Shown here: piece by piece, positions 31,452 to 34,637 of the stretch
Layout of the letters: each line of letters begins with the position of its first letter
Numbering within the stretch: the stretch's first letter is position 1
Program-made: the position numbers and the translations under genes
Notes under the pieces: model-generated
Databases searched by the model: none
The model's input: the letters and a program-made list of their open reading frames with translations, nothing else
What the model was told of the DNA's origin: nothing
Assembly: GCF_003477885.1 (NCBI RefSeq)
Contig: NZ_QUEE01000006.1
Coordinates: 111,628-175,627, forward strand
Length of the DNA stretch: 64,000 nt
Origin: Lachnotalea sp. AF33-28
Lineage (GTDB): Bacteria; Bacillota; Clostridia; Lachnospirales; Lachnospiraceae
Direction of reading: 5' to 3'

Positions 31452-32549
31452 TTAGCTGGACATGAGTTCCTTCAGCTGCTCCAGCACGCCGTGGCCTCCT
31501 GTGATGGAGATGGTGCCGACCTTATCGCAGATGCGCTCCAGATACTCCAGCTCCTTGAGCTGATAAAGCGTCTTGTTCTCCTCCATCAGCCGTGCAGTGT
31601 TTAACAGGCTTCTGGTGGATGCCACTTCCTCCCTGCGTGTGATCACGTTGGCCTGGGCCTTCTTTTCCGCCACCAGCACTGTGTTCATGATATCGCGGAT
31701 CTCACCGGGCAGGATGATATCCTTGATGCCTGCCTGCAGGATTTCCACGCAGTAATCCTCCTGGACCTCTTTTAAGCGGTCAAAGACGTACTGTCCGATC
31801 TCTTCTTTCTGTGCCAGCAGATCATCCAGGCGGAAACGGCCGATATACTCGCGCATCACCAGCTGGGCGCAGGTGTAGAGCTGGTCTTTTAGGCCGTCTA
31901 TCTTCTGGACAAGCTTTAGAGGATCGGTGATCCGGTAGGAGAGGATGACATTTAAACGGATCCCCACCTTATCGGCTGTCAGGATCTCCTGCCCGTTTAT
32001 TTCCAGGCGCTGCATCTTCATGTTAAAGATTTTACAGGATACCTTTGCAGCATAGTTCCAGAAATAATAGGTGCCGGTTGCCAGCTGCTTTTCAAACCGG
32101 TTGTCGAAATACAGAAGGCCGGTTTCGCCCTCGCCGATCTCGATTTTTTTGTACAGCCTGGAAGGCATCAGATCACGGTAGATCTTGGGCAGCGTATCGT
32201 CCATATAGGGCGCGGTGATATCGATCAGGCGGAATTCGTTCTTTTCGAATACATTCCAGCACAGGGCTTCCCTGTCGGTCAGAACCGCCTTATAGGTATC
32301 GTTTACAAAATGCAGGGCGATGCAGTTGTCCGGAATCTGTACGCGCATAACCCTGGAAGCGAAATCTTCATGCTTCATCAGCAGCTCCACAGGGATGTCG
32401 CAGGTTTTGACATATCCGGTCATGGGAACGGTCTTCACATCATAGCCAAGAGCTGCGGGATAGCGGTACTTTCCCGCGGTCAGCAGTTTCTGATATACTC
32501 CGTTGCGGCACAGATAGCCGCATTCATTTTCTTTAATTATGTATTTCAT
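31452..32549 (-). CDS. SPFH/band-7 (slipin-like) domain protein
   Basis: Start MKYIIKEN with a GGAGG site; track ORF extends to 32612. SPFH domain signature through the central region. Confidence 0.7.
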   Translation of the reverse strand: MKYIIKENECGYLCRNGVYQKLLTAGKYRYPAALGYDVKTVPMTGYVKTCDIPVELLMKHEDFASRVMRVQIPDNCIALHFVNDTYKAVLTDREALCWNVFEKNEFRLIDITAPYMDDTLPKIYRDLMPSRLYKKIEIGEGETGLLYFDNRFEKQLATGTYYFWNYAAKVSCKIFNMKMQRLEINGQEILTADKVGIRLNVILSYRITDPLKLVQKIDGLKDQLYTCAQLVMREYIGRFRLDDLLAQKEEIGQYVFDRLKEVQEDYCVEILQAGIKDIILPGEIRDIMNTVLVAEKKAQANVITRREEVASTRSLLNTARLMEENKTLYQLKELEYLERICDKVGTISITGGHGVLEQLKELMSS

Positions 32550-32929
32550 ATGTTCCTCCATACTGCCTCTTCCCGGTGTACCGACACATATATATGCAGT
32601 CAAACAGCACACTGGAGGCTTAAAAATTGATGTTGCAGTCCGCTTCGCACAGGAAATGCGGATGATACCGGGGATATCAGCCGTTCACGGCCGCCGGAAC
32701 CGGACGGGACAGGGCTGCATCGCGCTTTTTTGTTTCAAGCGCGTTCCCGGGCGGTCTGGGCGGCTTAGAAGGGCCGTCCGCAGCATCATGCTGGCATTTT
32801 CCCGTGCTTCTGTCAGAGGCGTCCCCGGTACCGCGCCTTGCGGCGGGAACCGGGAGGCGGTGCAGAGTGTGCACCGGCTGCCTTTTCAGAAGGAAGCTTT
32901 CTGCGTTTTGCTGGTTCCATTCCTTTGGG

Positions 32930-33005
32930 GAGATGGATCATAGAATGATTGCTATACCACTTAGCTATCTGTCTTTTCTGACAGAGGAGGATTCGAACCT
33001 CCGAC
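32930..33005 (-). ncRNA. Candidate tRNA-like (permuted) RNA module: T-arm, closed acceptor-like hairpin, D-arm-like hairpin; possibly a Y-RNA/YrlA-like tRNA mimic
   Basis: Minus-strand read: GGAGG-TTCGAAT-CCTCC (canonical T-loop), then TCTGTC-agaaaa-GACAGA, then TA-GCTA-AGTGGTA-TAGC-A (D-arm-like with GG), then a short ATCA/TGAT hairpin. There is no anticodon arm. It sits in a 665-bp ORF-free GC-rich gap directly downstream of rtcB. Confidence 0.35.
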
Positions 33006-33224
33006 ACATCATGAGCGCCCGGCTGCCTGGAATACCGCATCGGCAGAGCCGCCGGTACCGCGGAGGAAGCGTGGAAAAGGTTTCATACGAACCTGATCCA
33101 TGCATAATCCCCGGCGCACAGGCAGTGTTCCCTCTGTTTTAGCAGAGGGAGAGCACGCCCGAAGAACAGCCGCGCATATATAAAAAACTGTATTCGGCCG
33201 TCAGATATTCCGGCCGGCAGTTCT

Positions 33225-34457
33225 TTATCCTTTCACAACGCCCGCTGTGCGCAGACGTTTCACCGGTATGACCAAGTCGCTCTGACAGGCCATCACCGCA
33301 TCAATGTCTTTGTAAGCGAAGCGGCTTTCCTCCGCCACATCCTGCTTATTTTTCTTCCCGAGCACCACGCCCCGGCTGTTTAAATCCAGCATCACCTGCT
33401 CGCAGGAGAAGGCGGCCATGGCGCCTTTTCTGGAAAAGCGCCTGCCGGCGCCGTGCGAGGAGGAGCAGAAGCTCTCTTTATTGCCCGTTCCCATGACGAT
33501 ATAGCTGTAAGAGCCCATGGCGCCCGGTATGACGGTGATTTCACCGTTGTTCGCCCGGGTGGCTCCTTTTCTGTGTACCCAGACATCCCTGTCATAGTGA
33601 TGCTCCAGCGCGGCATAATTGTGGTGGCAGTTGATCTCGCCGGAGAATTCCAGAGTCAGATCGGTATATTTGCCGATCCACTTTTCAAAGACGGATTTTA
33701 CGGACAGCATCATCTTTTCACGGTTTTCCCTGGCAAATTCCAGGCAGAGATTCATCCAGTTTAAGTAAGCCCGGCCCTCTTTGCTGTCTGTAGGTAAAAA
33801 AGCCAGACGGTATTCATCAGGCACATCGCTGTACCATCTGCGGTTTAGCTCTCGGGCTTTCGTATGGAAATAATCGCATACGCTCTTGCCGAAGTGCCGG
33901 CTGCCGGAATGGATCATAATACCCAGGTATCCTTCGTCATCCACCTGTACCTCGATGAAATGATTGCCTCCGCCCAGCGTCCCAATCTGGAAATAACCGG
34001 CATCCAGCTGGCCTAAAAGCTCCCCGTCCTTTTCATACAGATCGAACTCCTCAAAGGCTTTATCCAGCGTGTAGCAGGGCATCGCCGTCTTATGATGGGC
34101 AAACCCCACAGGGACATTGCGCAGTATATCGCCGATGATGCCCTGCAGCAGGGTACCGTTTCCGGTGGTGATCCCCTCAATTTCCTCCAGACGGATGTTG
34201 GTCTGGGTGTAGGCCATGCCACAGCCGATATCCACGCCCACAGCGTTAGGTATAATGACATCGCAGGCAGCGATGACGCCCCCGATGGGCATGCCCATGC
34301 CGGCATGGGTATCCGGCATCAGGCAGACCCACTTATGGAGGAAAGGAAGCCGGGAAAGGTGGTATGCCTGTGTCAGACAGGTCTCTTCCAGATCCTCTTT
34401 TCCGTTCAGCCAGACCCGTATCGGGTATTTCGTAGATTCATCAGAGATAACAAACAT
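33225..34457 (-). CDS. rtcB: RNA ligase RtcB (3'-phosphate/5'-hydroxyl nucleic acid ligase)
   Basis: 410 aa. Start MFVISDESTKYPIRVWL; the conserved RtcB core includes CLMPDTHAGMG. Track ORF from 34505. Confidence 0.9.
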   Translation of the reverse strand: MFVISDESTKYPIRVWLNGKEDLEETCLTQAYHLSRLPFLHKWVCLMPDTHAGMGMPIGGVIAACDVIIPNAVGVDIGCGMAYTQTNIRLEEIEGITTGNGTLLQGIIGDILRNVPVGFAHHKTAMPCYTLDKAFEEFDLYEKDGELLGQLDAGYFQIGTLGGGNHFIEVQVDDEGYLGIMIHSGSRHFGKSVCDYFHTKARELNRRWYSDVPDEYRLAFLPTDSKEGRAYLNWMNLCLEFARENREKMMLSVKSVFEKWIGKYTDLTLEFSGEINCHHNYAALEHHYDRDVWVHRKGATRANNGEITVIPGAMGSYSYIVMGTGNKESFCSSSHGAGRRFSRKGAMAAFSCEQVMLDLNSRGVVLGKKNKQDVAEESRFAYKDIDAVMACQSDLVIPVKRLRTAGVVKG

Positions 34458-34637
34458 ACAAATCACTTCCTTTCCTAATATATTAGCCGCGATCCGGCAG
34501 CTCATTTCCCATCCGGGATTAATTTGTTTGTTGTTTGCTATGGCTATATCATACAGGAAGATAATGGATGAATCATTTAAAAAAAGTTGCGAACATTAGA
34601 AGCCGGCTGTAGCTTTACGGCATCTATGAACAGATTA

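Follow-up and report, generated by a model that had tools for sequence, protein, structure and literature searches.

The 675-nucleotide (nt) gap between rtcB and the following SPFH/Band-7 gene of Lachnotalea sp. AF33-28 encodes, on the strand of both genes, a conserved structured RNA whose centre is a tRNA mimic of the type found in the bacterial Y RNA called YrlA. The gap occupies positions 32550-33224 of the stretch of contig NZ_QUEE01000006.1 that we analysed over its whole length of 64,000 nt (hereafter the window), and the gene order on the minus strand, based on Pfam searches with the neighbouring genes, is rtcB, RNA, Band-7 gene. We are highly confident that the element is a conserved YrlA-type tRNA-mimic RNA associated with Band-7 proteins. 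A preliminary description, made from the letters of the sequence alone, had already proposed a circularly permuted YrlA-like tRNA mimic here, and the Rfam model of YrlA indeed matches the tRNA-like part. The same description had considered the RNA an rtcB-linked orphan, a view that has to be given up, since the SPFH/Band-7 gene that directly follows it accompanies it constantly, even in loci where rtcB is not adjacent.

On the minus strand the letters are arranged exactly as had been claimed: a T-arm is followed by a closed acceptor-like hairpin, the dinucleotide UA and a D-arm. In addition, the whole is bracketed by the two strands of a closing stem (table 1). The T-loop is canonical (U54 U55 C56 R57 A58), the D-arm carries A14, G15, G18 G19 and A21, and all letters of a tRNA elbow are thus present in the module (U8, A14, G15:C48, G18G19, U54U55C56 and A58). 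Both the minimum-energy and the centroid fold of the 72-nt unit reproduce the proposed four-helix structure (-20 kcal/mol, z -2.6), with a stability equalled by 4 of 200 shuffled sequences. The pairing differs in one detail from the preliminary description, which had seen a short local ATCA/TGAT hairpin after the D-arm. The letters AUCAU at 32949-32945 pair instead with AUGAU at 33012-33008 and not with the TGAT at 32940-32937, and because this closing stem covaries in all of its five pairs among related copies, the local hairpin is not a conserved pairing. The window copy has neither an anticodon arm nor an anticodon-like loop.

Table 1. Features of the rtcB/Band-7 locus of Lachnotalea sp. 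AF33-28, with positions in the 64,000-nt window.
Feature	Position	Strand	Basis or remark
Core tRNA-like (YrlA-like) module	33012-32945	minus	Rfam YrlA, covariance model R1, minimum-energy fold, covariation
Closing stem, AUGAU : AUCAU	33012-33008 : 32949-32945	minus	Anticodon-stem equivalent
Linker GUGUC	C33003 = position-48 equivalent	minus	Between closing stem and T-arm
T-arm, GGAGG, loop UUCGAAU, CCUCC	33002-32998, 32997-32991, 32990-32986	minus	Sequence
Closed acceptor-like hairpin, UCUGUC, loop AGAAAA, GACAGA	32985-32980, (loop), 32973-32968	minus	Sequence
UA (U8 and A9 equivalents)	32967-32966	minus	Sequence
D-arm, GCUA, loop AGUGGUA, UAGC	32965-32962, (loop), 32954-32951	minus	Sequence
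Conserved 5' hairpin 'XHY'	33064-33026	minus	RNAalifold, covariance model R2; just 5' of the module
Terminator-like hairpin and U-run, then AT-rich UAUAUAU	33182-33223	minus	Centroid fold; adjoins the stop codon of rtcB
3' part of the ORF-free region, many stable GC-rich hairpins	32562-32934	minus	Fold of the whole 675 nt
rtcB, RNA 3'-phosphate/2',3'-cyclic-phosphate ligase	33225-34505	minus	Pfam RtcB, E 6.6e-110
Soluble SPFH/Band-7 ('slipin') protein, 365 amino acids	31452-32549	minus	Pfam Band_7, E 8.6e-27
Two adjacent WYL-domain proteins, 491 and 332 amino acids	34702-37178	plus	Divergent from rtcB; weak Pfam WYL matches

Comparison with relatives supports a conserved RNA. A search with the RtcB protein yielded 80 loci from species-representative genomes (here given L numbers), the best of them from Lachnospiraceae and other Clostridia with 59-79% identity, and in many of these loci a pattern scan revealed the order T-arm, hairpin, D-arm on the rtcB strand, at a distance of 100-400 nt downstream of the gene. 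In an alignment of 23 copies constructed with MAFFT (A1), where the T-stem had been selected by the search pattern and the other helices had not, the four-helix structure pairs 87% of the cells, compared with 64% in shuffled alignments; the covariation score is 0.58 versus 0.16, a value that none of 500 shuffles reached and that lies far above all slid controls. A further alignment (A6) comprises 19 copies outside A1 together with that of the window; these were found with a model, so some bias towards the structure is expected in its values of 96% paired cells (69% when shuffled), both-side changes in 14 of the 18 pairs and a covariation score of 0.69 versus 0.19 (again no shuffle out of 500 being as high). 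The T-arm letters GGUUC.A.UCC are invariant in the 23 and in the 20 aligned homologues, with both-side changes in three of the five T-stem pairs. The acceptor-like element behaves differently, its sequence not being conserved while the hairpin is always formed: all its pairs show both-side changes in A1, and in A6 its three outer pairs display three to four pair types each with 98% of cells paired. In the D-stem, 96-99% of cells form pairs in the two alignments. Finally, the equivalent of the tertiary 15:48 Levitt pair is C:G in 21 copies of A1 and U:A in the other two, with zero mismatches, and is paired in 95% of the cells of A6. Covariation thus backs the T, acceptor-like and D helices that had been predicted, and the closing helix in addition.

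A covariance model built from A1 (R1), which is trained mainly on Firmicutes copies and includes a single copy adjacent to an rsr gene (in locus L064), scores 65.8 bits over positions 33014-32935 of the window, itself a member of the training set, and gives E-values of 1e-16 to 1e-24 for homologues. It finds the module in 21 of the 22 rtcB loci carrying a Band-7 gene, where the order rtcB, RNA, Band-7 is that of the window, is strong in five of the 13 loci that carry a gene for a DUF2828+DUF7788(vWA) protein instead and weak in the others, and further detects the module in loci cut at a contig end, upstream of Band-7 genes in metagenome loci and in three closer relatives. The matches, about 45 related loci in total from both Firmicutes and Proteobacteria, are always on the strand of the genes, and the expectation that the motif should recur next to rtcB in related genomes is thereby borne out for rtcB and/or the Band-7 gene. 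Many relatives have two to four T-arm modules in tandem (L002 7440-7700; L011, L012, L020 and further loci of Lachnospiraceae; L048 7585-7813); the window has one.

Rfam, when searched at its gathering thresholds, returned nothing in the window. With matches in the segment 32300-33500 ranked by E-value, the sole meaningful one was YrlA (RF02553; 33010-32946, 37.1 bits, E 3.2e-6, or about 2e-4 once the 1.2-kb search is scaled to the 64-kb window), aligned to model positions 23-86 of 114, i.e. the tRNA-like domain without the Ro-binding terminal stem. The score is below the Rfam gathering score of 69 bits, although this is a weak test, as two copies adjacent to rsr in L064 fail it too (38-41 bits); the 37 bits of the window therefore fall within the range of genuine members, and the Rfam cut-off appears conservative. 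The RNA of L080, which Pfam identifies as a canonical rtcR-rsr-YrlA-rtcB-rtcA operon, scores 70 bits over the full Rfam model, its GCGAAU Ro-binding stem included. Our model R1, on the other hand, detects both the L064 copy on which it was not trained (47.5 bits) and the YrlA of L080 (48.4 bits), meaning that the module is homologous to YrlA's tRNA-like domain, or at least indistinguishable from it. At gathering thresholds 13 related Firmicutes loci gave no YrlA match either and a single match to the tRNA model, spanning two adjacent modules of L002 (the D-arm of one and the T-arm of the next, 40 bits). RNAs of this kind thus go unannotated in these 13 loci as well as in both Rsr-adjacent copies of L064.

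In Salmonella, Mycobacterium and numerous further bacteria that encode Rsr, YrlA is the Y RNA (Chen et al. 2014, PMC4201824; Wang et al. 2018, 10.1101/312249). Chen et al. (PMC4201824) described it as a Ro-binding motif combined with T, acceptor-like, D and V elements, reported that its tRNA-like domain is modified by TruB and DusA, and noted a 15:48 pair that covaries in the same way as the one seen here. The window RNA shares with it the closing stem, T-arm, closed acceptor-like stem and D-arm in the same order, the letters of the T- and D-loops, the covarying 15:48 pair and a frequent location next to rtcB. It differs in that the Ro-binding stem is replaced by the hairpin XHY (table 1), which is tied to the SPFH/Band-7 neighbour. 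The preliminary description had seen no Ro/Rsr gene in the window, and this is correct: a tblastn search of the whole 64 kb with two Rsr and two DUF2828 proteins gave a best E-value of 0.35, and the neighbouring genes lack a TROVE match, whereas for a Y RNA such a gene would be expected on its strand at a distance of no more than about 4 kb. A terminal stem of the Ro-binding type GNCGAAN0-1G is likewise absent, YrlA model positions 1-22 and 87-114 being unmatched; a lone similar string, GCCGAAU at 33195-33189, lies within the terminator-like hairpin behind rtcB and lacks the following G. Having neither a Ro60/Rsr gene nor a Ro-binding motif, the RNA does not, strictly speaking, qualify as a Y RNA.

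The preliminary description had kept a decayed or permuted tRNA gene as its fallback. In favour of it, the letters of the T- and D-arms are tRNA-like, and permuted genes from which working tRNAs are processed do exist. In the red alga Cyanidioschyzon merolae the 3' half of such a gene, with the T-arm, precedes the 5' half, with the D-arm, and the products, which arise via a circular intermediate, are normal tRNAs that have an anticodon arm and whose acceptor ends are open. The gene order is alike, but the RNA of the window differs by its conserved closed acceptor hairpin and its lack of an anticodon arm. Neither ARAGORN nor the Rfam tRNA model reports a tRNA in the window. Compensatory changes have kept the closed hairpin and the closing stem in about 45 loci of Firmicutes and Proteobacteria, which argues against decay, as a decaying gene would not preserve these helices; and the same-species contigs, which show five differences across the 675 nt, have zero substitutions inside the module. 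We therefore reject this explanation and assign it only a very slight probability, notwithstanding that two adjacent real tRNAs in L024 yield, at their junction, a weak false R1 match of 30 bits. Real tRNA genes flank the rtcB/Band-7 module in several Lachnospiraceae (L011, L024, L030, L036 and L047), namely Glu-UUC with Cys-GCA or Arg-ACG downstream and Asn-GUU upstream, and the real tRNAs that ARAGORN reports in the related loci are flanking genes and not the module.

A chance resemblance, or the remnant of a protein gene, may be dismissed with even greater assurance. The gap does contain open reading frames (ORFs), but these are mechanical ones of 46-134 amino acids on both strands, and none of the four metagenome contigs of the same species that cover the gap from end to end has a gene called in it (a fifth reaches over its 3' part only). 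The similarity of these ORFs to the retrieved loci is confined to the RNA module and occurs in several frames and on both strands, so it reflects conservation of nucleotides and not of a protein, and the ORF searches gave no sign of a decayed gene. Together with the E-values for the Rfam and R1 matches cited above, these observations lead us to reject both variants of this explanation as having a negligible chance of being true, and they agree with the original remark that the region holds no credible ORF.

That the RNA belongs with the Band-7 gene follows from loci in which the three components have come apart. RNA and Band-7 occur together where rtcB is not adjacent (L081-083) and where a distant RtcB, with about 30% identity, follows the Band-7 gene (L089-094 and L103); since the RNA keeps the company of Band-7 when rtcB lies elsewhere or is missing from the retrieved stretch, it is linked to Band-7 and not to rtcB. 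The Band-7 homologues start at MKYI.., which places the start codon of the window gene at 32549. AlphaFold2 (pLDDT 84-91, with 83.7 for one model) predicts for the protein an extension of beta repeats at the N-terminus, a core resembling stomatin and, at the C-terminus, a long helix; the core matches PDB stomatin 3bk6 (E 1.7e-16), and a Foldseek search with the model lists stomatin, HflK and prohibitin on top, with MVP lower down (410-470 aligned columns with MVP chains at a TM-score of 0.45-0.50 normalised to the query). Among the structure entries matched, the solved SPFH relatives are rings or cages of 16 to 26 subunits. No membrane segment is seen on reading the sequence of the protein and no canonical RNA-binding fold is recognised in it. 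The partner family is large, comprising more than 7,500 sequence clusters.

The second conserved part of the RNA is the XHY hairpin just 5' of the module, where GCGGUACC and GGUAUUCC stand on either side of a variable inner hairpin. Across the copies the flanks are conserved as GCGGUGCC ... GGUAUNCC and the inner stem varies; the pairs at the foot of the stem hardly change (G.U, U-A, G.U or A-U, C-G), and RNAalifold, applied to 23 copies, predicts nine pairs, five of them with compensatory changes. A polymorphism among same-species contigs, A33056G, converts an A-U pair of XHY to G.U. A covariance model of the hairpin (R2) gives 36.7 bits for the window copy, and its matches with E <= 0.01 are restricted to Band-7-type loci or to Lachnospiraceae loci in which no partner gene was found, the latter being judged on the stretch available, which in two cases is cut at a contig end. 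Wherever the module was detected as well, the match sits just 5' of it. With R2, XHY was not found in the 13 DUF2828-type loci nor in the Rsr-type loci.

The DUF2828-type loci have elements of their own. Between rtcB and the DUF2828 gene they contain arrays of three to eight small hairpin units (L029, L031, L032, L035, L037, L038, L040, L041, L043, L046, L048, L049 and L051), in each of which a variable stem, A(A/C)G(G/A)NNNNN ... NNNNN(C/U)C(U/G)U, precedes the 5'-strand motif ACAGCA(A/U), which is conserved. The stems covary between units, and one unit can enclose a tRNA-like module (e.g. in L043). These ACAGCAA arrays look like a Y-RNA-like RNA family serving the DUF2828+DUF7788(vWA) protein; such units are missing from the window and from most Band-7-type loci. 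In 11 of 37 loci (L006, L009, L010, L012, L016, L019, L036, L050, L085, L102 and L119) a mimic of an anticodon stem-loop, with the 7-nt loop YUGUNAR, follows within 90 nt 3' of the module, compared with a background rate of 0.004 per 105 nt. Loop position 36 takes all four bases, corresponding to the anticodon loops of Tyr, His, Asp and Asn tRNAs (the queuosine family), and UGU is the recognition element of Tgt and of colicin E5. This anticodon-loop mimic is absent from the window. In L064 (7138-7261), ARAGORN predicts a tRNA-Asn(GUU) that has its T-arm in common with an Rsr-adjacent YrlA copy; this near-complete cloverleaf fused to an acceptor-like hairpin and D-arm may represent, next to rsr, a tRNA of the b7a type (b7a for 'Band-7-associated') known from the literature.

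The remainder of the gap is less readily interpreted. The preliminary description had called the region GC-rich and structured; the latter holds firmly, the fold of the 675 nt having -284.6 kcal/mol against -237 +/- 5.6 for dinucleotide shuffles (z -8.5; -0.7 to -8.3 for the equivalent intergenic regions of 15 related loci), whereas the enrichment in GC is modest (56% versus 52% for the window). The terminator-like hairpin directly behind rtcB, of which a comparable 'ACAGTTTTT..TATATA' occurs after rtcB in the closest relatives L117 and L118, may mark the end of the rtcB transcript and/or the region where the RNA starts, although a scan for consensus promoters and terminators did not flag it. 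The 3' part of the gap shows no detectable sequence similarity to related loci and is not repeated elsewhere in the window: in blastn searches of the gap against the relatives only the module matches, a global alignment to the closest metagenome locus is convincing over XHY and the module alone, and with the remaining approximately 580 nt the closer loci L117-L119 have only short strings in common. In Band-7-type loci (e.g. L012, L020, L081 and L089-L098) an octamer, GGAUACCG, is located 100-300 nt 3' of the XHY hairpin; it is kept in about 31 of 36 loci, often with GCCUUGYC or GCCUGAA just before it, and has been lost in the lineage of the window. We sought a covarying partner for the octamer in the relatives and found none. 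Long-range pairing with the 3' side of XHY or with a GCGG on its 5' side, considered by eye, received no consistent support, and compensatory changes in L089, L091 and L095 favour the local XHY hairpin over such pairing.

Given this architecture, what could the RNA do? In the mechanism that we favour, an RtcB-SPFH module for RNA repair would have this RNA as its cognate subunit, and the two divergent WYL-domain proteins would control the expression of the module. Transcription would proceed from the rtcB/Band-7 strand, the hairpin and AT-rich stretch behind rtcB suggesting a separate start or partial read-through. The design of the RNA would be that of a Y RNA, with a handle specific to a protein and an effector domain: the handle, the GUGC/GUAU hairpin XHY, would tether it to the oligomeric SPFH protein, and the tRNA-shaped domain would offer an elbow on which enzymes recognising the tRNA body (RtcB, modification or processing enzymes) could dock, or else would compete with tRNAs for tRNA-recognising enzymes. 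In both cases the effect would be to concentrate, organise or gate the repair of tRNA-like substrates that have been cleaved. Having no anticodon loop, the tRNA-shaped domain could not be cleaved by anticodon nucleases. On the comparative side, such a division of labour is argued for most strongly by a tRNA-like domain that is shared while the adjoining element varies with the neighbouring protein, being the GUGC/GUAU hairpin with Band-7, ACAGCAA stems with DUF2828+vWA and a GNCGAA stem with Ro60. We nevertheless advance this mechanism tentatively, its chance of being right falling clearly short of even, and the handle-plus-effector architecture resembling that of Y RNAs is suggested by co-occurrence of RNA elements and genes. 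Identity and mechanism blended into one explanation we would call reasonably probable.

Several observations speak against the proposal. About 370 nt (32934-32562) are strongly structured and do not align with relatives; within the region, the scan of this strand flagged neither a sigma-70 promoter nor a terminator; the GGAUACCG motif kept in most relatives is absent from 32550-33224; and the assignment of XHY as the handle for the SPFH/Band-7 partner is a proposal drawn from its co-occurrence with that partner. In addition, rtcB is frameshifted in two same-species contigs (L113 and L114, 1045-2324), where a 1-base deletion at window position 34103 splits it into ORFs of 196 and 239 amino acids and leaves the RNA and the Band-7 gene intact. 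This may be either an assembly error or a natural loss of the ligase, and the ligase may hence be dispensable.

The location of the RNA always directly upstream of Band-7 and on the same strand, even where rtcB is not adjacent, would also be expected of a cis-acting element of the Band-7 mRNA, that is, a leader controlling expression or a tRNA-like processing signal for enzymes of the RNase P/Z type, by which the transcripts of rtcB and Band-7 would be separated or stabilised, as opposed to the RNA of an independent ribonucleoprotein. On this strand the stretch from the module to the Band-7 start yielded no terminator-like site, and the YrlA of Mycobacterium smegmatis can reportedly be cleaved by RNase P (PMC4201824). 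However, the same module is found in the bona fide trans-acting YrlA next to rsr, its acceptor-like stem is closed and so provides no free junction of 5' leader and 3' trailer, and the DUF2828-type arrays of three to eight hairpin units resemble a set of small RNAs and not one leader. We thus deem a cis-acting role unlikely.

A different function is brought to mind by the suggestion that YrlA may competitively inhibit an anticodon nuclease (Hughes et al. 2020, PMC7790460): the RNA could be a decoy or sensor for tRNA-cutting toxins, with the RNA itself or its cleavage products being read by the WYL regulators, in the manner of tRNA halves and RtcR. The anticodon stem-loop mimic following the module in 11 of 37 related loci would fit, and so would the WYL-domain proteins flanking the system. 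The copy in the window, however, offers no anticodon-like loop for an anticodon nuclease to cut, and the binding of RNA by these WYL proteins is conjectural, for which reasons we find a decoy or sensor distinctly improbable. The WYL pair adjoins rtcB in 43-45 of 52 loci, also adjoins Band-7 in metagenome loci and accompanies the module throughout Clostridia; its smaller member (332 amino acids) has a PADLOC WYL match (E 9.9e-10), and PADLOC reports no known defence system beyond this WYL signalling domain. In the window the pair occupies the place held in Proteobacteria by the sigma-54 activator RtcR (e.g. in L080).

Returning to the handle-plus-effector proposal, it may be extended, more speculatively, to a modular and largely undescribed family of repair-linked RNAs that combine a common mimic of the tRNA elbow with interchangeable handles specific to scaffold proteins. 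The SPFH protein and the RNA would then form a loosely vault-like ribonucleoprotein compartment that gathers RtcB and damaged tRNAs, and the structure of about 370 nt would be a lineage-specific domain of an RNA of about 500-650 nt and not an untranslated region. This extension we regard as doubtful. The eukaryotic vault consists of MVP, which has an SPFH-like shoulder, TEP1, which has a TROVE domain, and the vault RNA. The likeness, an oligomeric protein of SPFH type (or TROVE type) together with a small structured RNA, is an analogy only, as the vault RNA is not tRNA-like and a cage is conjectural for the SPFH protein considered here. The mechanistic analogy behind the handle-plus-effector proposal is the Yrn1/Ro60/PNPase complex of Deinococcus radiodurans, in which a protein-binding stem is combined with a tRNA-like effector domain that tethers a second enzyme; the partner there is a TROVE ring, as opposed to SPFH in the window, and the D-arm of Yrn1 is not complete (Chen et al. 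2014, PMC4201824).

It has to be stressed that an association of RtcB, Band-7 and a tRNA-like RNA is already predicted in the comparative genomic study of Burroughs & Aravind from 2016, so that the window adds a well-documented member of a kind of element foreseen earlier. The abstract of that study reportedly speaks of 'SPFH/Band-7 modules' and 'a novel tRNA-like molecule' as potential scaffolding cofactors. To our knowledge, the predicted Band-7-associated RNAs have never been validated. As summarised by a citing paper (10.1101/312249), the study found RtcB beside a Band-7 protein and a predicted 'band 7-associated tRNA', viewed Ro with Y RNA and Band-7 with the tRNA-like RNA as cofactors of RtcB, and recorded YrlA occasionally next to Band-7. 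To the extent of that summary, the b7a-tRNA and the window RNA share their gene neighbourhood, in which RtcB and a Band-7/SPFH protein are encoded with a non-coding RNA that is tRNA-like, and the role proposed for them, namely that of an RNA cognate to a protein that acts as scaffold in RNA repair, and the occasional YrlA beside Band-7 fits the window, where a YrlA-type module lies directly upstream of Band-7. The b7a-tRNA is said to 'strongly resemble an authentic tRNA', whereas the window RNA is permuted and lacks an anticodon arm. In the proteobacterial rtcB loci that we compared no Band-7 homologue was found, and hence no authentic b7a-tRNA is among the compared loci. A paper of 2026 places an SPFH gene within a Pseudomonas rtc locus.

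We did not find a description of the partner-specific hairpin, of the differences in motifs between Band-7-type and DUF2828-type loci or of the Rfam blind spot for these RNAs. The part that bacterial Y RNAs, with their tRNA-like domains, play in operons for RtcB repair is a standing question (Hughes et al. 2020, PMC7790460; Wang et al. 2018, 10.1101/312249). The locus of Lachnotalea sp. AF33-28 and its approximately 45 relatives offer a clean, Ro-free version of such a system in common gut Clostridia, and the relatives show that the tRNA-mimic domain is constant while the flanking putative handle changes with the partner protein.

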